Shown here piece by piece: positions 3,176-61,137 of a stretch of DNA of 64,000 nucleotides. The position numbers and the translations under genes are program-made. The stretch spans positions 73,036,001-73,100,000 of the forward strand of contig NC_042998.1 in assembly GCF_006345805.1 (NCBI RefSeq), given 5' to 3'. Within the stretch, counting starts at the first letter, position 1. Every line of letters begins with the position of its first letter. Origin of the DNA: Octopus sinensis. Lineage: Eukaryota. The notes below the pieces were generated by a model. It was not told the origin of the DNA, did no database searches, and saw only the letters and a list, made by a program, of their open reading frames with translations.

Positions 3176-3810
3176 CTATATTCATCAAAGATGGCATTCT
3201 TCTTGAATACATTGATAGCCGAGATAGGAAAATTGGAATTATATTGAAATGCAGGTTAAAAGAATTTAATCAATGAAACAGCATTAAAGCATGTCAATAT
3301 AAGAACGTCAATGCCGACTGTAAATAGTTTTCGGCAAGGTTATTACAATATTTTGCTGAAATCTATTCAGTATCCGCGGCAAATATTTCGTCTATATTAA
3401 TACCAATAAATGTCAATATTCTGCTCAGTATGTAAAAGGAAGAAAACTAAAAAAGAATATCCTTTGGTAAAAAATAAATAAAGTAAGCTCGCAGTCTAAT
3501 TTGCAATATAAAAGTGATTATGTAGCCTAGGTTATATAATAAGTTGTTATATCATATGTACTTATTTCCTGGGTGAAAAAACTACAAATGCTGGTATTAT
3601 CATATATAGGCCATTTGTATTCTAAGAGTTTGCATCAATACAAATACAAACTATATAATTCAATTATTGGAACTTTGTAACTCAAGGATTTCTAGAGAAA
3701 TGCTTCCTAACATTTTTTTAAAAATCAGTAACTTAATCGATTAGGATGATCATCTACCTTAACAAATAACACAAAATAACATGCAATGTATTATATGAAT
3801 TGTTAAATAT

Positions 3811-4604
3811 ACTTTTCTAATCAAGACAAGAGCACGAAATTTTGGGAGAGGGGGCCAGTCGAATAGATCGACCCCAGTACGCAACTGATACTTAATTTAT
3901 CGAGCCCGAAAGGATGAAAGGAAAAGTCGACCTCGGCAGAATATGGACTCAGAACGAAAGAGATACGAAATGCAGCTAAGCATTTCGCCCGGCATGCTAA
4001 CCTTTCTTATTTCTTTATTGCCCACTAGGAGCTAAACATAGAGGGGACAGACAAAGGGATTAAGGTGATTACATCGACCCCCAGTGCATAGCTGGTACTT
4101 AATTACTTCACCCCGAAAGGATGAAAAGCAAGGTCAACCTCGGCGGAATTTGAACTCAGAACGTAACGGCAGACGTAATACCTATTTCTTTACTGCCCAC
4201 AAGGAGCTACACAGAGAAGGGGCAAACAAGGACAGACAAACGGATTAAGTCGATTATATATGGATCCCAGTGCATAACTGGTACTTAATTTATCGACCCC
4301 GTAAGGATGAAAGGCAAAGTCGACCTCGCCGGAATTTGAACTCAGAACGTAGCGGCAAACGAAATACCTATTTGTTTACTACCCACAAGGGGATAAACAC
4401 AGAGAGGACAAACAAGGACAGACAAACGGATTAAGTCGATTAAATCGACCCCAGTGCGTAACTGGTACTTATTTAATTGACATCGAAATGATGAAAGGCA
4501 AAGTCGACCTCGGCGGAATTTGAACTCAGAACGTAACAGCAAACGAAATACCACTAAGCATTTCGCCCGGCGTGGTAACGTTTCCGCCAGCTCGCCACCA
4601 TAAA
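3811..4604 (-). mobile_element. composite SINE family A tetramer: head-core-tail2a-core-tail2a-core-tail2b-partial head-core-tail1
   Basis: Four copies of the core with ~185 bp periodicity and a single complete head at 4552-4599. Flanked by a 13-bp TSD AATTGTTA(A/G)ATAT at 3798-3810 and 4605-4617. Confidence 0.9.
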
Positions 4605-11040: not shown

Positions 11041-12420
11041 TGTTCTATTTTGTTTATCCGATAAACATGGTTGTTTTCAGCACCATCGTAAAAAAAACAT
11101 GAGTCGATCGTAGGGGCTAAAATCAACGGTGAGAAATCGGTTGATTTGCTGTTGGGCTCCTGGAGCGGCAGGAAGATGTAATCGTATGGCGTCGTCGGAC
11201 CGTGGACCGATGGACCAGTTAAATTGCTCGGGGTCTGGTTTGGTCCCCACCTCCAGGTTGATAAGAACTGGGACGAGGTGGCAAACAGGCTGGCCAGTCT
11301 TATTCAGAAATGGGCTGAAAGAAAGCTGTCATTGAAAGGTTGGGCAGAGGTGGTCAATGCTTACATTGCCCCCGTTATCATTTATCCGATGAACATGCTT
11401 CCTTGCCCCGTTAATGCCTGACCAGGTTGGAGCGTCTCATTTAAATTCTTGTGGAAGGGACGCATTCGAATGGTCAGGTGATCAGTCTGTTGCCAACATC
11501 TTTTGAGTGGCAGATTAGTTATGGCTCCTAATTCACAGACACGCTCTTTTGTTACGCCAGCTGCAACGATTTCTGGACGGTATGCGTGAGTGGGCTCCGT
11601 TTGTGTGGTTCATCTTTCCGCAGCTCGTGCCTTGATGGAGCTGCAGTCCTGAATGAAAACAACACCGAGATTTGGCGCCTGCCATCTAGAATGTTGTCAG
11701 GCGGTCACAACCCTCTACCAGTCGGGAATTAGGATCGGTGGATGTTCTTCTTTAGAAATTCATATAGGATTAGTGACATGGAAGTGTGACGATTTCTTGG
11801 GGAGACTCTGGGCGCCGACGAGGATGAACTGACTAATCTGTTCTGGGGGACTTTGCAGTCGGGAACTATCATGGATAATTTCCAGATATTCTTTGCTTGG
11901 CAATGCTACTGGGGGATAGGCGTAACCGGTTTGAGATAAAATCTACAGGCACGTATGTGCTGTCAGACGGTCTTGTGCAAGGTGCGCGCAGTGATGAAAC
12001 CGTTGTACATGCCCTCGTTCAGTGTCCGGGCACTGCTGAATTGTGAGGTTATGTTGAACAGCTGCTGTCACGTGTGGGACGGGTCCATCTATCAGCCGTG
12101 TCTGCAGTGATGATTTTAGCGCCGCCCACCTTTCATCGGGCAGGCAAGGCAGTTTTCCTTTGCCTGGTGGCTGTAGCAATAAAGGTTGCTTGGTGGTCAA
12201 GGCTGAAAGGTATGAGGACCGATACATTCCTCTTTGGTAAAGTTCTCATTGAATTTTTCAGGTTCCACTTGAAAAAGAAATTGAGATCAGAGAGTGCAGT
12301 GTTGTCCCTGAGTGAGTTTATTAAAATGTGTGTGAAAGTTGCGAAAATGGCAAGAGTGTATGGTACCTCTCTAAGTGTAGGGCCTGTAAGACGGAGAGAA
12401 GGAATTGGAGAGAGCACTTG
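11040..12420 (+). mobile_element. Tx1/L1-clade LINE, internally deleted and decayed (post-RT region and C-terminal Cys-His motif)
   Basis: GAKINGEKS, LGVWFGP, WAERKLSLKGWAEVVN and C..C...ETVVHALVQC. Homologous to 30590-31590, 33850-34470 and 60130-60450. Confidence 0.85.
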
Positions 12421-12449
12421 CTCCTGGGGTTTCAGAGAAATATTGGACT

Positions 12450-12700
12450 GTGGACAGTGGATAACAACATTATTTGCAACCTTAAAAAGTTTGACCGGTG
12501 GAAGTTAAACCAAAGAACGAAAAATGTCAATGATATTCTGAAATACATCAAAACAAACATCACAGAAACAAATAACTTGATCAAGGCAGCAAGTATTTTT
12601 GTAGCAGAAAATGTAGGTGTTGATGTCAAGAAAAAGAAATACAATGGGAGTGACAAAAGAAAAGACCAATGGTGGATAAGAAGAATACAGGCAGGGTTAG
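12450..12700 (+). mobile_element. R4/Dong-type N-terminal fragment
   Basis: LKKFDRWKL...NITETNNLIKAASIFVAENVG...QWWIRRIQ matches the pre-RT region of R4/Dong-like ORFs. Confidence 0.6.
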
Positions 12701-12990: not shown

Positions 12991-13819
12991 TAGAATTTTT
13001 TCTGTTGCGTAGTAATGGGTATTACACGCCAATGTTTCGCAAGAACAGTTGGCCATTTTGTTTTTGTTAATTTATCTTAGTATATTCACACAGCAGCATC
13101 TAAGCTAGATAAGTTTTCTGAAGATAACTCCTTCAGTAAGTCTTGGCTCTGGCTTTCATCTAACTCAGCAATCGAAAAACTATACAAATAGAGAATTGTA
13201 TTTCCAGAGACATGTTGAATTTAATTATAATTAAATCATTTTTTCAATATAAATTCTGCTCGTATGAGTATCATGATATAAAATTAAAAGACATTTTCTC
13301 CGCTCTAACACAATAAAAAATTACAGCGGCTTCAGTTGGCTTTTGAAATTTAATTACTTTCACTTCCTCGTGTCTATGTCCTAAGGCTAGGTATTATGCA
13401 TACGTGCACACTTGATATCAGTAGTATAACTTACACGATACAAGTCGATTATTAGTTGGCAATTATTTCAGGGATTTTTCATATTTGCAGGAACGATAAG
13501 GAAAGGAATTATTTAAGGTTTTTGAAACATAATTTAATTGAATACGTGATACGTTTGTTAAATACAATATTCAAAATCAGGAATAAATGATTAACCACGA
13601 TAAAGCCTTAGACGCAAACGCTTATAGAATTCAATATGGGCCAATATGGGCTATTCTTTACCTGAAAGCAGGCAATAACAAATCACCAGAAGTTTCAAGT
13701 AGTGCCTTCTCCTCCGATTCAAAGAGACAAAACTCTCCTTAGAATGCGAGCTATACCCAACAATGCTGTCTTCTGGATCACCTCGAGGCTGACAGCAGCT
13801 CCAATATTCTTAATACGTA

Positions 13820-14220
13820 AGGCGGCGAGCTGGCAGAAACATTAGCGCGTCGGGCGAAATGCTTAGCGGTATTTCGTCTGCCGTTACGTTGTGATTTCAA
13901 ATTCCACCGAGATCGACTTTGCCTTTCATCCTTTCGGGATCGATTAAATAAGTACCAGTTACGCACCTGGGTAGATATAATCGACTTAATCCGTGTGTCT
14001 GTCCTTGTTCGTCCCCTCTGTGTTTAGCCCCTTATGGGTAGTAAAGACATAGGTATTTCGTCTGCTGCTACGTTCTGAGTTCAAATTCCGCCGAGATCGA
14101 CTTTGCCTTTTGTTCTTTCGGGGGTCAATAATTTAAGTACCAGTTGCGTACTAGGGTCGATTTAATCTACTGCACCCTTCCTCAAAAATTTCGGGTCTTG
14201 TTCCTAGAGTTGATAAGAAT
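13820..14220 (+). mobile_element. composite SINE family A dimer: head-core-tail2a-core-tail1
   Basis: Full head GGCGGCGAGCTGGCAGAAAC, two cores, and junction GTAAAGACATAG|GTATTTCG at ~14052. Confidence 0.9.
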
Positions 14221-14547
14221 ATGACCCAAATGTAGTTACCAGTTGATACGCTTGAAATAAAAGTAAAATTTCATTGAATTCAACGGTGCTTAGTGAAATT
14301 AAATGAAGGACATATCATATGACCTATATATTATAAATGTGTTAACCATGTGACTCGGACAAAAATCTTATATATTGTAATCGTATGAAGAATATCATTC
14401 TGGATAAGGTTTGGACGATCGAGAAGAAAAAAATATTTAGTATCTTCCATTAGATATATGAAAGTGTATGTATGACGCATATAAAATATACGCAATATGA
14501 ATTTAATATATAGACGTGCCACTTATTAAATCGCATTTATCTATACT

Positions 14548-14762
14548 TATTGGTTTCAAATTTTGGCTCAAATCCCGCAAGCTCGGGGAGGGGTAATTTG
14601 ATTACCTCCACCCCAGTGCTCACCTGGTACTTGTTTTATCTACACCAAAAGAGTAAAAGATGACCCTACCGCATTGGAATTTGAACTTAGAATGTGTGAA
14701 CGGATGATATGCCACTAAGAAGTTTATCCAGCGTGCTAATGATTCTACGAGCTCACCGCCTT
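14548..14762 (-). mobile_element. SINE family A monomer, diverged
   Basis: Reverse complement of head (CTCACCGCC), B-box (GGAATTTGAAC) and CCCCAGTG...CTGGTACTT. Confidence 0.75.
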
Positions 14763-14999
14763 ATTCGGTATAATAATTTTAGTTGACATTCATTATATTC
14801 TTATCACAGTACAAATAAACAGCTGCTAACCGCCACATACTTGCAACAAATGCTAGGTTTCAGCCTCTTATAATCTCTAATAACTTTCTCACCTACATTA
14901 AAACGTTGATAGACAACATTCCTAACGCTTAGATTTTTCTTTAGTATTCTGTTTTCATGAGTCTGTATTTTCTTTTCCATAATTTCCAATGATTAAACG

Positions 15000-15720
15000 C
15001 TTCTTTCAAATAACATAGAATTTCTCTAGATCCTTAAGTAGCTCCTTACTGATGAGGAGGTAAATAATATATTACAAGAGAAACGCAAAGAGTACAGGAA
15101 AGAAGTATATGACTATTGTAAAATTTAGCTACTGATGGACTGAATGATTATAGAAGACAGCCTTAGCATAGCTTGGATTATGTATCCAAAAGTATATTTC
15201 ACACTCCTGAAAACTTGACTTACATTGCATGATTAAATTACGCTCAATTCTAAACATACACATCAGTCCTACCTATGAAAATACTTACTAGTGTAAACAG
15301 AAATCCAAAATAAACATATAGAGATGAATTTCCCAAAGAATTGCATTATCTACCCAATGATTTGCCGTGGCCTAACTCCATTAACTAACGTCGTCAAAGA
15401 AACCACCACTCGTTAAAGATGTTACGGTTATACTATAAACAGCCACCTTTATATGATCAGGTTGAAAATATTCGTGAAGATTAATAGTTAGAAATTTCAT
15501 CAATCAACAAAGACCACGAAATAACCACTATAAAATTTGGCAAATGTACAAGATTTATAAAAGTAAATGGCAAAATAATTAAAACTGAGTGCCTTAAGTT
15601 GGATGAAGGAACCGAAGCCAGAGAATTTGAAGAAGGTCGTCCATGTAAATGCAAAAGACTGGATGTGACTGATAAAATGCCAAACAAAGAAACGAAGGGT
15701 AGAATCAAGTAAATTATATT
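15000..15720 (+). mobile_element. heavily decayed R4/Dong-type RT fragment
   Basis: Ordered remnants of AW.DY.K..., GIFQG-like, SHL.YMD.LKIF and KFG..KC motifs, with many stops and frameshifts. Confidence 0.5.
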
Positions 15721-16149
15721 AAAACAAGACAGCCCAATATAACAAGCATTCACCTGGGGAGGATGGGACATATCAGGTTGGAAACGGTGTTCACTGGACG
15801 ACATGCCGGTTGATGATTGAGTTTCCACCTATATCAATCGAACAATATACTAAGATGTCAGTGTGGACATGGATTGGGAGTGAGCAGAAAATAAACACAG
15901 TATGTGAACATGACACAACCACACTATCTCACACATATCGACCCAATCTGACAAGAAAATTAGCTCCTACACTTTAAGTATTAGAATAATAAAAAAAAGA
16001 TAACAAACATATGTGCAATATACTAGCCATTAGAATGCATTCTCTCTAAAAGTTTGTCTGAAAGGAAGAAATTTTCAAATATACACATTTCCCAAATTTA
16101 ATATTACGAAACCCTATTCTGCACCTCCAAGGCATTTGATACTGCCTGC

Positions 16150-16895
16150 ACATGTTTACCTCATATTTTCACCCCCTTTTCCATTGGCTAGCCCCGCAAA
16201 GCCCAAGTGAGCATCCAAGATACCGTTCAAATATTTATCCGAATTGAGGATTTTCCCAAGTATGGTTATCAGCTGGATACAAAATGTACTTTTATATTCA
16301 TCACAGCTAGTCAAAGTAGGTGCATAGGCACTTATTAGAGTAGCAAATCGCCCACCTTTCAGGTGCACTTGCAGAGTCATTAGACGTTCATTTATAGAAA
16401 CAGGAAACTCCTCCAACTTCTTAGGATATCAGATCGAACTGCTAAGCCAACACCAGCTTCTCTGCGTCCCCGCTTCTGCCGCAACAAGGGCATTGCGTTT
16501 TTCAGGCCTACAATCACTCTTCTTATCCAATAGAGTGCGCACATTTCAACATGAAATTTGAAGTTCCAACCAGATTTTGTAAGTAAAAGTATCTTTATTT
16601 TTCGATCGCAGGATGGACTTCCATCAGTCCGGCTAAACTGACCAGATATAGAAAGACAGGCAATTTTTGGTTCACCTTTTCTGGAACCACCCCCGGCCTC
16701 CGGGTAAGCAGTGCCCTCTTCAAATGGAGCTGCCCAGACACCCATGCAGCAACCGATTCTTACCGTTGTCTTGGGCAACAACGAGAGGACTTTATATCTA
16801 GCATGGGCCGCCTATGTGCATGTCGCTGAATACATGCTTCCAACCCGTCAGGTATGCATGCTTCACCACTTTCCCATCGCTGCAGGACTTCCAGA
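16150..16895 (-). mobile_element. RTE-clade LINE 5' UTR plus APE endonuclease fragment
   Basis: REAGVGLAVRS and INERLMTLQVHL...ATLISAYAPTLTS are characteristic RTE/BovB endonuclease motifs. Confidence 0.85.
16755..16813 (-). ncRNA. decayed HDV-like ribozyme in the RTE 5' UTR
   Basis: Minus strand reads GGCGGC ccatgcta GATATA AAG TCCTCTC GTT GTTGCCC AA GACAAC GGTA AGAATC. This follows the HDV order P1-P2-P3-L3-P3'-P1'-P1.1-P4-J4/2-P2', with several lesions. Confidence 0.55.
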
Positions 16896-16917
16896 TAAAA
16901 AAATATATATATACTAA

Positions 16918-16975
<58 letters not shown>

Positions 16976-17021
16976 ATCTATCTATCTATCTATCTATATA
17001 TATATATATATATATATATAT
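16918..17021. repeat. (TCTA)n + (TA)n microsatellite
   Basis: Read directly from the sequence. Confidence 0.95.
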
Positions 17022-17035
17022 GATTTTGATTTTTG

Positions 17036-17088
17036 ATTTTTCCAGTTTCAGCTAATGAGCTGTGGCCATGCTGGGGCACCGCCATTTT
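17036..17088 (-). mobile_element. isolated 3' tail of a CR1-type LINE or SINE B-related element, between (TA)n tracts
   Basis: Reverse complement GGCGGTGCCCCAGCATGGCCACAGCTCATTAGCTGAAAC matches both the SINE B tail and the LINE 3' end at 23085-23135. Confidence 0.7.
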
Positions 17089-17110
17089 ATATATATATAT
17101 ATATATATTT

Positions 17111-17161
<51 letters not shown>

Positions 17162-17734
17162 CTAATACGCATATACTAAAACTAAACTAAATATATATAG
17201 GGAAAAACACATATCGAGCAGAGTTCAGCAATGCCTGTGCAAAGTTTTAGGTCCAATGAGGCTTGCACAACACTTCATAGACCCTCTCCACTTTATTGTT
17301 ATTATCCAGAGACAATCCAGAGCAAGATGTATGGTGCCAATATGAGTCGCAGGCTCAGGGGTATGAGAGCGCCATGATCTCTAGCATAAACCAAAGATGC
17401 CCAAAACCATTCCCTGCATATCTGGCTTTATATCTGATTTATTTCAATATTATGCTCATCAAAAAATTGCCATTGATTAGTATAATAACGAGAAAATCCC
17501 GAGGAGAGAGCTTGTACACACGAAAATCTCGACGAAAGAGTTTCTGCAAAGTCACCCAATCTGCTAGAAATAATAGCCAAGCGTGACCCCACTGACTGTA
17601 TAGTTTCTAACAAAACTATTACCTTTATTTATGTTGTACTTTGCATGTTTGCCATAATACAGCTTTCCAGTCACAGTTTGTATGGTGCATGTAGAGGATA
17701 GAAGTTACGGTCATTTTAACAGATATACTCTTAG

Positions 17735-18115
17735 TATTTTACTCTTTTACTTTTGTCAGTCATTTGACTGTGCCCATGCTGGAGCACCTCATTTAGTCGA
17801 GCAAATCGACCACAGAAGTAGTACTTATTCTATCGGGCTTTTTGCCCCACCGCTAAGTTACGGGAACGTAAACAAACTAGCATCGGTTGTCAAGTGATGT
17901 TGGGGAGGACAAACACAGACACACAAACACACACACATCTATATACATATACATATATACGACGGGCTTCTTTCAGTTTCCGTCTACCAAATCCACTGAG
18001 AAGGTTTTGGTCGGCCCGAGGCTATAGTAGAAGACACTTGCCCAAGATGCCACGCAGTGGGACTGAACCCGGAACCATGTGGTTCGTAAGCAAGCTACTT
18101 ACCACACAGCCACTC
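17735..18115 (-). mobile_element. tRNA-derived SINE family B (CORE-like CTTGGGCAAGT segment)
   Basis: Near full-length reverse complement of the 43077-43470 copy, with B-box GGTTCAGTCCC and an internal (TA/TG) tract. Confidence 0.9.
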
Positions 18116-18971
18116 GTTTACAAACTTTCAGATAAACGTTATTTTTTTAGGAAAGAACAATATAATGTTAGTGGAATCACCTATAATTATTATAAGATTA
18201 TGTGGAGGTGGAAAAGATGATTTAGATAATAATAATTCTGGACACGACTGTAATGATTACAGTGGTAACAAAGACGATAATGTTAATTTCGTCAGGGCTT
18301 GTAACGTGTAAGTTAATGCACCTTTGAAATCTTGATATTGCTATTTCTCAAACGCTGTTGGTACTTTGATTTACCTTTCTAAAGATTTCATTTGAACTCA
18401 AAGCTTCGCCGTGTTTGACCATCAAGAGTCAGTTGTTTCTCTAAATTAACTAAATTAACATTCTCCGATAAGATTTATTGTTAGGATTCAAATGAATAGC
18501 TCTGTTTACTTACTATAACGAAGCATGTTGTTAAATTTGGTATTAGATATTTCATATAACACAGGTATCATTGAAAGCAAGTCCAGATTATTTCTTTTTA
18601 CTCATTATCATAATCATGGTTATCATCACCTTCATCAACATGGTTGTCATCTTCGTTGTCCTTATGCGTTAAATTCGTTTCTACGTTCACACACCGTCAC
18701 ACAACATGTTCAATTTTCACTATCTACCTTGCAGTTCACTTTAAACTATTATCGAAAATATTTTTCTAGCCAACAACATTGTGTAATGGGAAATCTTTAC
18801 GTTGTTAATCAATAAAATACATCTGCTTCTATCTTCTATACACCCTTAATTTCTAATAACTTTTAAAAGACAAGATTTAGAGGCATAAATGAACAATAAA
18901 GATTATGCCAGATCACATTTGTAGTACTAAACAGGTTTGCATAAGATTTTCTAAGATCCTCTATGTTAGCA

Positions 18972-19400
18972 GTGCTAACGATTCTTATTTCTTTATTGCC
19001 CAGAAGGGGCTAAACATAGAGGGACAAACAAGGACAGACATAGGGAATAAGTCGATTACATCGACCCCAGTGCATAACTGGTACTTATTTATCGACCCTG
19101 AAAGGATGAAAGGCAAAGTCGATCTCGGCGAAATTCTTAACTCAGAACGTAACGGCAGACGAAATACCTATTTCTTTACTTCCCACAAGGGGCTAAACAC
19201 AGAGGGGACAAACAAGGACTGAAAAACGGATTAAGTCGATTAAATGGACCTCAGTGCGTAACTGGTACTTAATTTATCGACCGCGAAAGGATGAATGGCA
19301 AAGTCGACCTCGGCGGAATTTGAACTCAGAACGTAACGGCAGACGAAATACAGCTAAGCATTTCGCCCGGCTTGCTAAGGTTTCTGCCAGCTCACCGCCC
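18972..19400 (-). mobile_element. composite SINE family A dimer: head-core-tail2a-core-tail2b-12 nt of head
   Basis: Two cores and two tail-2 variants. Candidate 6-bp TSD TTAGCA at 18966-18971 and 19401-19406. Confidence 0.9.
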
Positions 19401-19749
19401 TTAGCACTTACAGAAACAATGAACAAAGAATAAATATTATGAAAAATCTAAATTATAACTATTCCAGGAAGTTTGCTTATTTCTTCATACGTTATAATCA
19501 AGGACTTATTAAAATATCAAAAATTCTCCCACTAAATTAGATTTAAATAACCAGGAAAGAAATCGTCAATTAGAATAAAACTCATTAGACAATTCGGTAC
19601 TGCCTAAACATTAATATTAATTTACATGATAAAGTTTTCATTTGTTAAAAGTTATGTCATGGAAACTATACGGTGTTTGAAATATGAAATGAAATATTTG
19701 TTCCAGTTAAACGTTGTAGAATCCGTTGATTACTGTTACTAATGAAATA

Positions 19750-28389: not shown

Positions 28390-31300
28390 CTGTTTGTTTC
28401 TCCGATAAATATGGCTGTTTTCAGAGTGGAGTGCGTGAATCTACGTGCCTTATAGTCAGCTTCGAAGCAAGGTCACTTGCTCAATGATCTCAGATTTCTG
28501 GATGTAGATGTGGCTGAAATTATCAGGACATGGATTCCAAATGTGGAAGTACTAGTGGCCATTTTCGATGACTATGAAATATTCTCACCTCGTTGACTGT
28601 AGGGAGCGGGCGATGGGATAGCCGTACTATTCCGAAAATCTTTACATGTCGAAGAAATCGCAATCTTTATGACCCGGACGGGAATGACAGCGAAGGTGGT
28701 GCCTTTAGTTTGGTAGGCGTTTATGCCATGAGAGGGGCTGAAGAACCAGATTTCGTCAGGCGTCTAGAAACATTCCTAAGAGCATCTCGCAATTTAGCAA
28801 TAATAGCGGAAAGGAATAGAATTTTCAATGCACAGAAAGATTGTGTGGGGCTAATACATTTCAGAAGCGGGTGCAAAAGCCCCGTAAACCTGCTCAGAAA
28901 CTTCCATTTATTTGATAGGTGTCAACAGCATTTCCCTCATTTCCGATGTGGACATGAAGCAACCGCTATCTGGATAGAGTATTTGTTATGTCAGTGGGTA
29001 GGTATAGCGTAGATTGTGTACAGTTGAAACTGGTCTGCTGCACAGACTACAAATTTGTGATCTGCACAGTAAATTTAGATATGGCTAGCAAGGCGATTGC
29101 TAAAGGCGATCAGGCAAGGCGACAAGCTAGCTGCGAGAAAAGCCACTGACCACTTCATTGAGACGAAACACGATGGCTGCGTTGTCAGAGCGCTCGAACC
29201 CCAAGGAACGAAAAATATTTCGATGGAACCAAACAATGGAGATGCAATATGGTAACAAAGGCATGGTCAGATCTTTGATGGATCGGGACAAATGCGTGCT
29301 ATTCGGTTACGAGCAGAGGGCTCACTTGTCTAGAACCACTTTGGTGCGGCTTTTGTGGTATAGCGACAGTAGCAGACTTTAGTTTATACCTGGACAGTCC
29401 GCCACCGCTCTTAGCAGCGGACGTGAAGTTCTACGAAAAGCCAATAACGGCAACTGAACAACGGGAGGGGATGTGCGATTGCACAAGTCGCAGATTGCAT
29501 GTTTAGGATCATCTTCCCTGTGAATTGTATGAGTCATGCTAGATTTGCTTTGTGGCCTTTTGGCAGGCATCTACCGTAACTGGCAACAGAACTAGAGACT
29601 TGTTTCAGCTGTTAACCAGGTAGTAGTGACACTGATGAAGAAGGAAGTTGAAAGTGGGGACGTGCGACAGAATGTTTGTCACATAAGTCTGCTAAATGCA
29701 GAGTTTAAGATTTTGGCCAATGTGTTAGCGAAAATGTTGGCGCTTTTCTTCAGTAGTTTCGACGGGGAAGCGCAAATGACTGCTATCTCGAACGGGTCTA
29801 ACCTCGACAACCTTCCCCTCAAGCGATATATCACAGGAGACAGAAATTGGCATCGATAGGGTTTCAATCCATTTGGACCAATCCAAATCATTCGATATGG
29901 TGCACCATCACAACTCGGAAGCTGTCCGGAATGCGGTCGGTTTCCGACCCAAATTCAGAGGATGGATCACTGCATTACACAGAGACACCTATTTGGTAGT
30001 CTAAGTAATCGGAAACATATCGGGATCGTTTGAGACAGCACGGTCGGTCCGCCAAGTCTGCCTGATGTCACCCCTTCTTTATGTGCTGGCTTTTAATCCA
30101 CTGCTGCCGAAGTTGGAACAGTTGAAGTGCATACTGTCAAACTGGGTTACGGGAGAGCAGAGTCGGTGTACACGGACGACGTCACCGTCATGTTGTTGGA
30201 CGCATCAGAAGTGGAGACGGTCGGCACCAATCTGAAGGAATATCGGTTGTTTAAGGATGTTGAACGAAACACCCATTTTTCAGGGGTGAATTGTTCAAAC
30301 ACCAAAGAATTCTTCTCAACATATGGCTATGATCCGCCCCACTACTTCTCGTGGTCATAGATGTACGTATCGTTAACCACAAAGGGACATGCTCAACTGA
30401 CAAGCAAATCTGTGGTATTGAGCAGAATATTTCCTGTAGCTCATATTCTATTCCAAAACTTGTACATGATAGCGCTTACAACCAGTTAAGATCAAAAGCC
30501 ATGACAGCCAGTGCCTATTACTGCATCAGGGCATCTATTTTTATTACTATTATTAATATTATTATTATCATTATCATTGGAAAACTCGGTGGGCTGGAGA
30601 GGTAAGTCCATGCCGTCCAACAGCGTCGTGGGGCGCTGGACAGATGGTTCGTTTAAACTGCTCGGGATCTGATTTTTTCCGGACCTCCAGGTGGAGACAA
30701 ACTGGGACGAGGTGGTGGACAGCGTGGCCAATCTCACTCAGAAATGGGCCGAGAGGAAGCTGTCCCTGAAAGGACAAGCTGAGATGGCGAATGCGGATAT
30801 CGCACCCGTCATCTACTACTGCTTGACCGCCGTCATTTACCCTATATGTTGGCCGAACAAGTTGGTGGGCTTCCTCTTTTGATTTCTGTGGAGGGACGCG
30901 TGCTGCTGATCAGGCGTTCCATCTGCTGTCTACAGCCGCTGAATAGGGGTCCGGGCATGCCGTGGTTGCTGATTTGCGGGCATTCTCTCAAGCTGCGACG
31001 TCTCCAGCGTTTCCTTGACGGTGAGCGACTGTGGTCACCGTCTGTTAGACTCGCTTCCCACAGCTCGATTCTTTGACTGAGCTGCAATCCCAGATTAGGC
31101 GTAGACTGAGCTGGGGCGCTTGATACCTCGAGCGCCGTCAAGCGATCACGGCCATCTGCCAGTCAGACAATTCGGTTGGTGCTAGTTCCACTCTAGCGTT
31201 CTTTAGAAGAAAAGTGCGACGACATTCTCGGGGAAGCTCTGGGCGTCGACGAGGTCAGCTTACCGCTTTGTTCCGGCGGACTTTCCTGCTGAGGTCTATG

Positions 31301-31590
31301 GATAACTTCCAGAAATCCCTGGCTTAGCAGAGTTACGAGGGGTGCTACTCGTTCTAGATAAACTTTACCGGCATAGAAGTGCCGACAACCGATCCTACCC
31401 GTGCTGTACGCTGAGTGACAAAACCGTTCTGCGCGCACACGTCCAGTGCCCGAACATGGCTGACCTATGGGTTTACATCGAATACCTGCTGGTGCATGTG
31501 GTACGGTTCCCACTATCAGTTGAATCCATAGTGAAGATTGCCACACCGCTTTCCTTTGGCTGGGAGGGGCAAGCAATTTTTATTTTCTGG
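28390..31590 (+). mobile_element. Tx1/L1-clade LINE ORF2 (APE-RT-Cys motif), decayed and interrupted
   Basis: MAVFRVECVNLRAL (APE start), FSLVGVYA, ISLLNAEFKILA, VRQVCLMSPLLYVLA, YTDDVT, WAERKLSLKG, and C..C...TVLRAHVQC. Confidence 0.88.
30245..30537. mobile_element. SINE-like family C insert within the Tx1 copy
   Basis: Breaks the Tx1 coding continuity and ends in an (ATT)n tract. Shares CCCCACTACTTC...GCAAATCTGTGGTATTGAGCAGAATATTTCCTGTAGC with 31590-31768. Confidence 0.7.
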
Positions 31591-31832: not shown

Positions 31833-33265
31833 TTCGTTGCACAGCTTCTAACAACGGTGTCAGCTGTTCAGTAACAGTGAACTAAGGTAACACCTCTTAT
31901 TTTTCGAGCACCTTCCGGTGTATTCAAGCGTGCTGTTTTCTGCAAGTACTCAACCCTTATTGCAGCCCATAATATGTTCTTCATGTACTTCTCAAGATTT
32001 TACTCACTGTTCCCTGGGCTCCGACAATTATTGGCACAACTGCCATTTCCGGTGTATGTTGTTACCAAGCACCCGTATGTTGTTACCAAGTACCCGTAGC
32101 CTCATATCCATACTTCCGGCATAGTAGCCAGTTTTCGGCTACTTCGTCGTGTCAACACTTGTACTCTTTCTGTACAAGACTTTCACAAGCACTAACAATG
32201 AGAATCACTTTCGGCCCTCTGCAGAATGCGTAGGAAGAATTACTGTGGTTTATATCATTTTTCACCCAGTTGGTATTCAATGCCTGATCCTGGGCCGCGA
32301 TGATTAGGCTTTCAGTATTCTTTTTTTAGGTCACCTTTGTTGCACCACCTCCATGATACTTCCCGGCCTTTTAATTTGTTGGTTTCACGGTGGAATTGAC
32401 CATGTACTTCCATACGGAGTAGGGCTTCTTCTCTCTCGTTGTTTGTTCTTGTTCGGAATTCATAAGCACTCTTGAGTCAATTTTTGTTAACTCCTTCTAC
32501 ACAAGCAGCATACTGTAGCAGGTCTTCTTTGCTGTTTACCAAATATTCTGCCATGTTTCTTCTTTTACTGTTGATGCATTCCCGTACGCTAAGCAGCCCA
32601 CATCCACCCATACCTCTCTTCATGTATAGCCTGTGTATATTAGCCTTAGTGTGGGGATCACCATGCATTGTCATTGTCTTTTGAGTAGTGAGATCGAGTT
32701 GGTCAATTTCCGTTTGTGTCCATCTCAGGATGGTTGCACTCTAGCGGCCTACAGCAACAGCCCGTATGGTGATGGCAGTCACAAAGTTCTTTGAGTTGAG
32801 CTTTTATTTCAAGAGAAGTTTGAGGCACTTCAAATATGCAGTGTGGAACTTGTCTTTCGTTTCTCTGTGCAAGATATTTTCCAGCTCCAGGATCCTAAGG
32901 TACTTGTACTCATTATCATCCGGGTCTTCCATTCTCTTTTTGTTTGGAAATTCTATATCCCTACTCTTTTCCCCCGCTTCAAAGTAAGCACCGTACACTT
33001 CGATATACCGAATTCCATCCCCATATCGTTGCTGCACATTTGCAGTCTCAACCAGCCTCTCCATTTCAGGCTCTGTTTTTTCGAACAGTTTTAAATCTTC
33101 CATGAAGATAACGTGGCTGAGACGAAGTCCATTGTTTCTCAGCTAATAGTGCACGTTGATTTTACGTATGACTACAGAAAGTAGGATCAAGGCCATAACA
33201 AATAACAGAGGTGAACAAGAGTTTCCTTGGAAGATACATCTTTTCATTGTTATCTCGGCTCAGTG
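31833..33265 (-). mobile_element. R4/Dong-type element, 5'-truncated, 3' end in (TAA)n
   Basis: CIFQG.SCSPLLF, LSHVIFMEDLKLF, YKYLRILE, RLYMKRGMGGCGLLSV, ESLIIAAQDQAL and VLAENSTLEY. (TTA)n at 31768-31832. A 21-bp tandem duplication lies at ~32054-32095. Confidence 0.88.
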
Positions 33266-33277
33266 CTGGTTATTACA

Positions 33278-34470
33278 GGAAATTCCAGGCCCATAACTCT
33301 GCTGAACACAGAGTTAAAGGTGCTAGTGAAAAGGTTGGCGCACGTTGTAGACGGACTTGTAGGGGAAGCGCAAAAGTACGCCATCTCGGGCAGGTTGATC
33401 CACGACAATCTCCATCTTATACAGTACTCCTTGGAGAGGGTGAGGAAAATTTCTGGCGTAGGAGGGCACTAGTACATTTAGACTAGCCTAACGCATTTGA
33501 TAGGGTCGGCCATCGGTATTTGGCGTCGGTCTTCGAGAAGGCTGGCTTGGGTCCGACCTTCCGCGGTTGGATTGCTGCGTTGTACAGCGACATCCAGTCT
33601 GTCGTGAAAGTGAATGGTTTCTTTTCGAGGCCAAGAAGGATCAAACGAGCAGTGCGTCAGGATTGTACCCTATCTCCGCTTTTATATGTACTGGCCCTTG
33701 AGCCATTGCTGCGGAAGATGGATGCGTTGGGGGCGCGCGGCATAATCTATAGTGTGGAAGATGAGCAACGGCGTACGCGGATGGCATCTCCATCATATTG
33801 GCGGATGAAGGCCAGCTTCCTATGGTGGAAAAGGCCATCGAAACTTACGAGGCTGTGACAGGAGCAAAGGTTAACAAGAAGTCGGTCGGTTTGCAACTCG
33901 GCACCTGGAGGCGCAAGCCAATGCCGCACAATAACTTCGTGGGGCGTTGGACGGAAGGTGCCGTTAAGCTACCCGGAGTTTAGATTGGATCCAGACCTCC
34001 AGACAGAAAAATTGGAATGAGGTGGCCAGCAAAGTGACTGCTCTAACCCAGACCTGGACTGGGTGGGCGTTATCCTTGCTAGGAGGGGCGGAGGTGGTAC
34101 AGATGTTTATAGCATCAGTAATCACCTACTGTCTGACCGCGGTGCCTTGCCCCGATTTGTGACTGAACAAGTTGGAGAGAATCTTTTTCCGCTTTTTGTG
34201 GAAGGGAGGAAAGCCTCTGGTGAAGCACTCTATCTGCTGCCAGAAACCGCTAAAGCGTGGGTTAGGGTTGCCTTGACTGAAGATGCGAAAATTCGCTTTA
34301 AGGTTGAGGCACCTATGGCTTTACCTGGATGGAGAACAGGTGTGGGCACCGCATATCCGGTTCTATTTTCCGCAGTTAAAGTCCATAACGGATGTTGGTA
34401 CATGTATCAGAGACCTAGCCTGGGGGACTGGCAATTGGAGTGCCGTGAGGAACTTCAGTTACTCTCTCGA
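33278..34470 (+). mobile_element. Tx1/L1-clade LINE RT fragment
   Basis: RPITLLNTELK, AFDRV, VRQDCTLSPLLYVLALEPLLRK, AYADG and TGAKVNKKS. Confidence 0.9.
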
Positions 34471-58817: not shown

Positions 58818-59670
58818 CAGGAAATTCCTCCATAAATTTATGTAGTAGATAGATACCGACTATGTCGGTTACCTCTGCGGAATCCTGTGCACCCATTGCT
58901 ATATCGAAATAATCTGGTGTACTATTCTTGCAGAATATCTGTTTTCGTTGGATATCAGTTTTTCTAGCTGCGAGTATGATTTTAATTTCTTTCATGGGTA
59001 AGTTTTTTCTATTCTTAGGAAATATGAATGGCTTATTTAATGAAATTGGGTTAATAGATTGGTAATAATCGTTAATGTCTATTTGGATAAATTTGTATTT
59101 TTTTTGTCTCGAATCTTTGTAAACCAATTAATTGCATCTTGTGTTCTTGACAATAGGCTAAATTTAATTTTGGTTTTTAGAGAGTATGTATACTTATCTA
59201 GTTTTCTAAGGTCCGATTTACATAGGCATATCAGCTTAACTTTAGGACCGATTTCAAATATATATTCTAAAAGATTGATACAGAATATACCCTACGCACA
59301 CACCGGAATTCCGGACATAATGCTGATGACGCCTGATAGCCATAAGTGGTGAAGTGCTCTTCAGGCACACTATCTGTTATTCACCCTAAAACAAGTCTTG
59401 GGTATTTCATTAGTTCTTTAATTCTAAATTTATAAAACATTGGGAAAATTATCCTTACAAATATTTCGCTTGGGCATTGCGCCGCTAATAACGGAACTCA
59501 ATATACTTCAGGTTTGAAGCTCCAAGTAAGTTATAGGGTGATCCTCAAGTAATCAACTATAAGTGCATCGTATCTTGTAGCAGAAATAGCTGTAACTTAA
59601 TGAAGTTCATAGCAATTATTTATTTTTCTGTCACATTAATGTCTTAGATAGATAGATAGATAGATAGATA

Positions 59671-60451
59671 AGTTTCTGTATTGGCCACACAGGGCTGCAC
59701 ACAGATGGGACAAGTTACAAGGTAGAGCTTTTCTTTTGGGGGATGAAAAAAACAAAAAACAAAAGAAACAAAAAAAGGGTGTTGGCGTAGGTTTTCGATC
59801 AAGGGGGATCGTAAAAGGGAAGAAAAGAACAAAAAAAATAAATAAAATAAAAAATAAAAACGAAAAATAAAAAAAAGAAAAGGAAAAGGAACAAAAGAAA
59901 GAGAAATGAAAAAAGAAGAAAAAAGGGGGAAAAAGGGAAAGAGGAAAAAAAAACGATCAATAGGGATCGTGTATCACAGTGTTATGATATATGGTGTAAA
60001 GGGGAAAGCAGGTAAGGTTTATCCGTGGGAAGAAAAGCCTACGAAAAAGACTACGGTAACCTTGGTCAATATTGTTATATGTTACCACATTTGTTTGCAA
60101 GTGGGTAACCCTCTGTTTTCAATTTCTGGGTTCATAGGATTATGCTCAAGGTGGCTTCGTCATTCATACGTGCCATCCTTGCTACATTCACCCATCTTTT
60201 TTTAAAACATTCGCTAGACAAAACTTGTATCTCTACTCTCACTTTCCTTTTCAAGTGGTACTTGAAGAAGTTGATGAGAGATTGATCAGAGAGGAAAGTG
60301 TTTGTCTCCAATCCTTTCAGACGCGTCCACCAGATACATTCTTTCGCCATAGCCACAAGGATGATGAAAATAGCTCTTCCTTCCCGTTTGAAGGAAGGAG
60401 GCGTGACAATATTGACGATAGACTCAGCTGATAAACCGACTCGTCCCACTC
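59671..60451 (-). mobile_element. Tx1/L1-clade LINE 3' end with complete 3' UTR, embedded in (GATA)n
   Basis: Uninterrupted ORF end (LSAESIVNI...VAMAKECIWWTRLKGL...FKYHLKRKVRVE) and a pyrimidine-rich 3' UTR. GATA repeats at 59646-59670 and 60452-60545. Confidence 0.9.
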
Positions 60452-61137
60452 AGATAGATAGATAGAGAGATAGATAGATCGATAGATAGATAGATATATA
60501 GATAGATAGATAGATAGACAGACAGATAGATAGACAGACAGACAGAGAGATAGGTATAAAGAAAGTGGGGAGATTACAGAAAAGAGCAAAAAAGGGAAAT
60601 TAAGCAATCTTATTTTTTTACCTCCAGTCAATACTTTCTTTTTGCACACATTAATGGTTTAACAGTTTTCTAGCTCATCGCTTACAGTAAAAAATAGTGC
60701 AAATTATTGAAGCTGTCAAACTGACTGAATGCTAACACTGCCAAGTTAATTTTAGTTAATAATTAAATTTTCTTATTTGTCTTTGACTTTGTGCAAATTG
60801 TTTTATTGAATGAGGTCAGTTCAAAATGCTTTGCACATTTTGAAATTTATTGACTGTAGCTTTTTTAAGAAGCATCAGAAGTGAAGGTGAAAATTTTGAA
60901 ATGTAGAAAACTAGCTTCCAGACTTTGGTGTCATCACCCTGGTCTCTCAACTTCTTGATGTCACCCTCTTGGCATACCTTGTGCCATCGGTATCTTTAGA
61001 CTGGTCGACAACGGATTTGTATAGTAGGCGAGACAGATTACGGGCAATGAAATGAATAGAAAAAGAATAATCGAAACCAATACACGGTTAGTACTACTAG
61101 ACCCCGAAGCATTGAAATGCAAAATTGAATTTGGATT

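Follow-up and report, generated by a model that had tools for sequence, protein, structure and literature searches.

In stringent pairs of short and long interspersed elements (SINEs and LINEs), such as eel UnaSINE/UnaL2 and zebrafish ZfL2 or, in the L1 clade, maize ZmSINE2 and Chlamydomonas SINEX-3_CR/L1-1_CR, the partners share a 3' tail (passages in PMC3747384 and PMC4176376); only three of 58 SINE/LINE pairs have L1-clade tails, and the relevant passage names plant and algal cases (PMC3747384). Among Tx1 elements, the Kibi and Koshi families target microsatellites and Tx1L targets a transposon, and the crocodilian SINEU was inferred from shared targets to be mobilised by the target-preferring Tx1-Mar (passages in PMC4494074). 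Active L1-Tx1 families are reported in an octopus, with no tails given in the passage concerned (PMC13282606), Tx1 goes unmentioned in passages of PMC11481361, and the octopus CORE-SINEs OR1 and OR2 are named in passages of PMC4824008 and PMC4758252 that do not describe tails, partners or multimers. Here we analyse a 64,000-nucleotide stretch of the 2.72-Gb Octopus sinensis genome (the window; contig NC_042998.1, G000:C2:73036001-73100000) and a SINE within it, SINE A, whose tail 2 is homologous to the 3' ends of this genome's Tx1-like LINEs and whose units form concatemers with fixed junctions.

Like the stringent pairs, SINE A ends in a LINE-derived tail of ~55-65 nt that holds a small inverted repeat and aligns in register; unlike them, its partner would be L1-group and Tx1-like, poly(A) is absent, and insertion takes place at a short, defined motif. 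SINEU, as the passages of PMC4494074 present it, is a SINE for which mobilisation by Tx1 elements has likewise been inferred, which is often tandem and whose target is another repeat. There the link is the common target Mariner-N4_AMi, with no LINE-like tail for SINEU-1, whereas in SINE A the link is the common tail, the target is a five-base motif within the SINE itself, and the concatemers keep a fixed register.

SINE A is present in the window as the following units and arrays, the first three lines describing one array.

19169..19399, minus strand: SINE A unit 1, with full head, core and tail 2a (19232-19169)
18986..19168, minus strand: SINE A unit 2, from head position 48, with core and tail 2b (about 19049-18986)
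18972..18985, minus strand: remnant of a third unit, 14 nt from head position 15, then unique DNA
3807..4599, minus strand: four-unit SINE A array, comprising a full unit and two head-48 units (these three with tail 2) and a last unit from head position 15 with tail 1
13821..14222, plus strand: SINE A dimer, a full unit with tail 2a (13821-14051) followed by a head-48 unit with tail 1 (14052-14222)
13868..13872, plus strand: M5, the five-base target motif, at SINE A head positions 48-52

M5 recurs at every head-48 junction (for example at 14052-14056). The second fixed junction, which the original prediction had set at head position 17, actually enters at position 15. ARAGORN found no tRNA in the SINE A head and Rfam gave no tRNA match down to E 5 (13700-19500), the A and B boxes being seen by eye only. 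The SINEs here appear to resemble octopus families, and SINE A is probably OR1 or OR2.

The homology of tail 2 was recognised against a LINE copy elsewhere in the window, which we assign to a family termed Tx1-GATA and which comprises these parts.

59671..60450, minus strand: Tx1-GATA LINE copy, 780 bp, 5'-truncated (from translation and genome matches)
60132-60449, minus strand: C-terminus of open reading frame 2 (ORF2) of this copy (from translation)
59671-60131, minus strand: 3' untranslated region (UTR) of this copy
59671..59722, minus strand: terminal ~50 nt of the LINE, with a pyrimidine tract, a short inverted repeat and an A-rich end
59645..59670, no strand assigned: GATA-type tetranucleotide microsatellite at the LINE 3' junction (the target; TRF)
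60452..60553, no strand assigned: the same GATA-type microsatellite at the LINE 5' truncation point (the other half of the target)

It had been claimed that tail 2b and the Tx1 end match at about 38 of 50 positions with both ends in register, and this likeness held up. Local alignment of tail 2b (18986-19049, minus strand) with 59671-59734 (minus strand) gave 38/50 identities at a score of 34, and global alignment of the two strings originally compared placed both ends in register and matched 39 of 47 aligned columns. Dinucleotide shuffles of this pair (n = 2,000) had a mean score of 13.1 (standard deviation 2.2, maximum 24), such that the observed score exceeds all of them (p<=0.0005); failure against shuffles had been named as grounds for abandoning the claim. 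A BLASTN comparison of the array (18950-19410) with the window also matched 59722-59673 (76% over 50 nt, E 5.6e-4), pairing it with the tail-2a copy at 19217-19171.

The same likeness extends to other LINEs of this genome, since a related end motif terminates all five Tx1-like families examined (Tx1-GATA, F-A, F-B and the families referred to as 12k and 31k). F-A is the closest, its end matching tail 2b at 48/55 positions with ends in register, and F-B matches tail 2 at 26/28 over the 5' half of the tail. For Tx1-GATA, F-A, F-B and 12k versus tail 2, p<=0.0005 was obtained in 22 of 24 pairs, the remaining two giving p<=0.0015 and 0.021. The Tx1-like ends and the SINE tails also have a short inverted repeat, noticed by eye with no hairpin computed. 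We consider it very unlikely that the 50-bp likeness is convergent low complexity and that another LINE clade mobilises tail 2: the pyrimidine-rich composition and the weak match of tail 2 to the 31k family (p 0.01-0.3 in some pairs) would suit convergence, but the in-register F-A match and the 22 pairs speak against it, as does the fact that a score of 34 was reached by only 13 of the 12,496 64-mers taken from 200 kb of adjacent genome sequence, of which, by eye, 12 overlap SINE tail 2 and one is another Tx1-like end.

Besides tail 2, at least two tails occur in SINE A, namely tail 1 and a third type (window 14172-14222, plus strand, and 3807-3856, minus strand). By eye, both contain the short inverted repeat that is also seen in the Tx1-like ends and, as the 12k and 31k families do, run into ATT/ATC repeats, so that these tails may be Tx1-derived too.

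Tail 2 is a true terminus. An exact 32-mer of tail 2a has 33,634 matches in the genome, and among full-head elements with tail 2 at their end in non-SINE DNA, target-site duplications (TSDs) flank 31/50 monomers, 11/27 dimers and 0/7 longer arrays, compared to 0/200 mismatched controls. Thus, the description of tail 2 as a concatemer linker is correct for arrays but incomplete, as tail 2 also ends TSD-bounded monomers. With its TSDs, 5' truncations, fixed 3' end and high copy number, SINE A is a retrotransposed SINE.

The insertion sites were defined with 47 TSD-bounded elements (exact end, TSD score >=10, low-complexity sites removed), whose duplications are 10-24 bp long, mostly 15-17, and which comprise 33 T/G-type tail alleles, 10 copies of the C/A allele and four unclassified copies. 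For the T/G-type alleles the pre-integration site matches the five positions of M5 in 26, 23, 32, 26 and 22 of 33 cases, while at the eight upstream positions no base exceeds 15/33; in 19/22 the upstream copy includes the first two bases of the target. Sites of the C/A allele (n = 10) are A-richer, and several resemble head position 15. Similarly, M5 lies 6-20 bases before the head anchor 6,003 times genome-wide versus 705 times for its reverse complement. With their 10-24 bp duplications and sharp five-base start, tail-2 copies resemble what a LINE machinery with a sequence preference would produce.

M5 being part of the SINE A head, we asked how often SINE A enters itself. Genome-wide, head positions 48-58 run straight into a full head in 191 nested signatures (about 10 of the 100 listed are tandem duplicates), compared to 10 and 27 for control signatures at two other SINE A positions and 44 at head position 15. 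All 30 nested loci fetched (25 independent) lie inside SINE A, 24 in the head and six at an internal array junction; in seven of the 30, host-private variants are duplicated on both sides of the inserted tail-2 copy, and five have no tail within 700 bases. Thus, SINE A does use the junction site in its own head for insertion. The 11-mer head site has 102,453 occurrences in the genome, and by a rough estimate the own head receives ~3% of motif-targeted insertions while holding ~2% of M5 sites, a ~1.5-fold preference that relies on a four-base background of 0.00263 and an assumed fifth-base value of 0.33-0.40 and not on a direct count. The remaining ~97% of such insertions lie in other sequence than SINE A: M5 is used genome-wide, and the own head is one target among millions. 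Of the proposal that Tx1 relatives targeting the SINE A head mobilise it, the tail homology and the self-insertion at the junction site stand, and the targeting of the head alone is not supported.

Scored matches numbered 150 in a genome search with the Tx1-GATA copy of the window; apart from the copy itself, all 149 are at 97-98% amino acid identity, and the family looks young and high-copy, apparently younger than SINE A. Its 3' end is identical and runs into a GATA-type microsatellite in 29/30 fetched loci (L025 has no anchor match, and L009 holds a single microsatellite unit), as does the 3' junction of 10/10 long copies, and the family does not sit in SINE heads. The near-full copy L032 codes for ORF1 and a 1149-amino-acid ORF2 with APE endonuclease (PF03372), reverse transcriptase (RT; PF00078) and zf-RVT (PF13966; C-terminal zinc knuckle) domains, and the best Protein Data Bank match of this ORF2 is human L1 ORF2p (E 7e-53; R2 gave E 3e-20). 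A Pfam search of the 105-amino-acid ORF of the window found no domain, and no named Tx1 reference was among 11 matches to the LINE. Owing to these domains, the L1 ORF2p match and the microsatellite target, the window LINE is an L1-group non-LTR retrotransposon with Tx1-like targeting and a putative member of the Tx1 clade. In the manner of Kibi and Koshi it has a simple repeat on both sides, and in the manner of Tx1L F-B sits at a fixed site of another repeat; here, however, the targets are a GATA-type tetranucleotide, ATC/ATT repeats and a SINE head.

As direct partner of SINE A, Tx1-GATA was rejected. First, its target is a microsatellite. Second, its copies are mostly 97-99% identical (one is 94%) versus tail-2 monomers that are 4-5% off the column majority. 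Third, its tail matches at 38/50 versus 48/55 for F-A. Tx1-GATA copies with microsatellite between them also occur in tandem (L013, L014, L017, L034 and L037), as expected because the 3' repeat regenerates the target, and the family has at least two 3' UTR subfamilies that differ in length.

An autonomous LINE ending in tail 2 was sought by pattern. For a LINE-type end joined to head 48 there were 32 matches, and the 30 fetched all proved to be variant or truncated SINE A copies (no search aimed at the head-15 junction was made). A first pattern excluding the SINE core had 698 matches and exposed, on inspection of 30 loci, the families F-A and F-B, with only these two and mutated SINEs among the 100 matches listed and the 30 loci; a second had 210 matches, the 100 listed looking like damaged SINEs or one 45-bp tandem. 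This tandem (G000:C11:6020008-6022074) is built of a unit from part of tail 2, with more than 40 copies listed. Neither pattern would detect a LINE whose anchor is altered or that has A at an excluded position. In these non-exhaustive searches no LINE ending in tail 2a or 2b or lying inside a SINE A head was found, leaving the predicted Tx1 copies of that kind without an example. Compared to a stringent SINE/LINE pair, the tail homology in register is thus present, and a near-identical autonomous partner with the same target was not found among the loci and patterns covered.

F-A is ~1.9 kb long (loci L231-L290 and L421-L432) and codes upstream of its tail for an ORF1 homologue that matches L032 ORF1 down to E 8e-21; no ORF2 match was found in 30 loci or in 12/12 ORF1 loci with 1.5-kb flanks. 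Its copies show 5' truncations and, in several cases, TSDs of 15-21 bp, at sites unlike M5; several are followed by one recurring repeat. By its coding content, F-A is an ORF1-only, non-autonomous derivative of a Tx1-like LINE, comparable to HAL1, the ORF1-only non-autonomous L1 derivatives described in a passage of PMC5753468. Like these, it codes for an ORF1 homologue alone, keeps its 3' end and has 5' truncations and TSDs; unlike them, it is derived from a Tx1-like element and has a defined tail instead of poly(A) and another target preference. Lacking ORF2, F-A was rejected as the autonomous partner. This partner is not the Tx1-GATA family; it is probably related to the lineage from which F-A descends.

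By contrast to F-A, F-B carries ORF2 (loci L171, L177, L181, L183, L187, L189, L193 and L201-L230). By eye, it adjoins the head of a second SINE, SINE B, in 28/30 loci with a visible 3' end, and in 25 of these 28 the SINE B sequence continues well inside the head. Also by eye, six copies have the 5' part of the SINE B head upstream (L177, L181, L216, L220, L223 and L226), with a clear duplication around the copy at L216, and ten have no SINE B head at the 5' junction; the other copies either extended beyond the locus or gave no clear junction. The SINE B head is probably a specific site for F-B; alternatively, it may be co-mobilised with the remainder of SINE B. At L049, a full SINE A monomer with tail 2a, flanked by a 17-bp duplication, lies inside the head of a SINE B copy; its insertion point is three bases away from that of F-B.

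F-B provides a parallel for the strictest form of the original prediction, a dedicated autonomous Tx1 family that has a tail 2a or 2b end and whose endonuclease cuts the SINE A head specifically, and an old or rare family could escape pattern-limited searches. Nonetheless, we regard such a family as improbable, in view of the SINE A variants and truncations at the head-48 junction, the outcome of the core-excluding patterns among the matches listed and the motif-targeted insertions outside SINE A.

The remaining features of the window that belong to these families are as follows.

11189..12460, plus strand: 12k Tx1-like family, old 3'-truncated fragment
30594..31585, plus strand: 31k (third) Tx1-like family, old fragment
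33280-34460, plus strand: old L1-group fragment related to 30594-30928, without 3' end
31900-33250, minus strand: decayed coding-like stretch, by eye resembling another retroelement
17737..18114, minus strand: SINE B copy

Relatives of 12k have the tail-2-like end motif followed by ATC/ATT repeats, and relatives of 31k have the terminal motif in common and end in ATT repeats.

How SINE A comes to stand in arrays can be asked of the junctions themselves. Exact tail-2/head-48 junctions number 30,131 genome-wide, and nested events amount to less than 1% of these; most concatemers are therefore likely re-retrotransposed read-through transcripts. In 864 kb of contiguous sequence, which was not selected locus by locus and of which two of three blocks are SINE-rich, 50/110 tail-2 units continue into head 48 or 15, compared to 12/155 tail-1 units followed by a head piece in no fixed register. 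Arrays begin with a full head in 28/33 cases, later units start at 15, 48 or 49 in 47/47 (registers that the chaining required), and the terminal units of the 33 arrays carry tail 1 in 18, tail 2 in 13 and another tail in two. Units in one dimer are often of different subfamilies.

We judge it reasonably probable that SINE A is copied through recognition of its ~65-nt tail 2 by a Tx1 ORF2 protein and that its concatemers derive from retrotransposed read-through RNA. The tail would have been captured by template switching from a Tx1 RNA, and its putative terminal hairpin would be the feature that the ORF2 protein recognises. SINE A would insert, with duplications of 10-24 bp, at M5, including the M5 at position 48 of its own head, and a rare nested full-length insertion would be transcribed from the start of the inserted copy, through tail 2 and into the remainder of the host, presumably by RNA polymerase III reading through the tail. 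This RNA, made up of a full head, tail 2, head 48 onward and the host tail, would be retrotransposed again, each multimer being mobilised through whichever tail stands last. Because every junction keeps the target, the process could repeat to give trimers and longer arrays, and the head-15 junction would reflect the same process for the other tail allele, tied to other target sites. The fixed junctions would then likely be, for the most part, inherited through re-amplified multimers and not made one by one; targeted self-insertion, to which they had been ascribed, is borne out by the 191 nested signatures as an event and would not account for the bulk of the junctions.

Three observations favour read-through. 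First, array heads are young (head divergence of 0.049 in arrays, 0.055 in tail-2 monomers and 0.099 in target-bearing tail-1 monomers). Second, the old target-bearing tail-1 subfamily is rare at array ends (8/22 monomers vs 2/26 array ends, p 0.03). Third, 246/316 tail-2 units have no four-T run. The first two also count against a rival reading, homology-seamed self-insertion, in which a SINE A already in place receives a tail-2 copy at head 48 and the cDNA of the newcomer is joined to the homologous head upstream, so that most junctions are primary events that leave no second head. Primary nested insertions do exist, and the products of a seam would look identical to read-through multimers; yet the own head is favoured only ~1.5-fold while nearly half of the tail-2 units above continue at head 48 or 15, and we deem this reading rather unlikely.

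Several points weigh against read-through. The subfamily comparison is biased, as many loci were picked via tail-2 patterns, and a young tail-1 subfamily also occurs as monomers and could be the direct host. A four-T run is present in 70/316 tail-2 units, and neither an autonomous LINE with tail 2 nor one with the M5 target was found in the non-exhaustive search. Retrotransposition of whole arrays predicts flanking TSDs, and these are absent from all seven tail-2-ended arrays of at least three units (3/7 in tail-1-ended arrays of that size). Finally, across 59 arrays head divergence tracks that of the last unit, if weakly (rho 0.29, p 0.02), and not that of the first unit's body (rho 0.08), which fits the seam equally well or better.

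Unequal crossover or slippage between the direct repeats of a nested insertion could instead duplicate units in place at the DNA level. A ten-unit array (L068/L070; L068 is G000:C1:8969349-8972380) has a 10-bp flanking duplication, and the L068 units share variants in a patchwork; long arrays of this kind probably also grew at the DNA level. Tandems in which the initial ~65 bases of the SINE A head are repeated, in up to five copies (L399-L405; G000:C7:15322782-15323080), and the 45-bp tail tandem point the same way, and unequal recombination was proposed as the main origin of squamate SINE-derived satellites, likewise head-to-tail arrays of partial SINE units, in a passage of PMC10702118. By contrast to these, SINE A arrays are short, dispersed, TSD-bounded and seeded by demonstrated nested insertion. 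That duplication in place makes most multimers is in our estimate a poor prospect: without an insertion step it yields no fixed-register tail-2-to-tail-1 chimeras at thousands of loci, the units of a dimer often differ in subfamily, and whole dimers are flanked by TSDs.

Tail allele and junction are linked, the C/A allele preceding eight head-15 junctions and one head-48 junction compared to 10 and 99 for the other alleles (p 5e-7). The read-through RNA might, as a tentative extension, partly set the target itself, with the host-head bases after tail 2 pairing with the nick and priming reverse transcription. The one-sided target profile, the linkage of allele, junction and target and the 3/22 junctions with bases absent from the target fit such RNA-set targeting, although different partner enzymes for each tail allele explain the same allele-junction-target data. 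If RNA-set targeting is true, alleles seek sites like the head position where their source copy landed, and a Tx1 enzyme that normally serves simple repeats is used in a feed-forward self-targeting loop, in which each insertion regenerates the target and breeds concatemers.

No account of this system was found in the literature searched, and Repbase, Dfam, SINEBase or repeat supplements may already hold the families. The SINE A/Tx1 system is likely a new form of the known sharing of tails between SINEs and LINEs, in which the SINE contains its own short target. As a Tx1-tailed SINE with tens of thousands of copies, SINE A is a test case for the ancestral stringency of RNA recognition in the L1 group. 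The related families, which combine one tail with different targets (two microsatellite types, a SINE head and a five-base motif), could separate endonuclease specificity from RNA-primer pairing. A target motif inside the SINE's own promoter can seed fixed-register multimers without recombination, and the locus-level data show a route by which a dispersed SINE becomes a tandem array.
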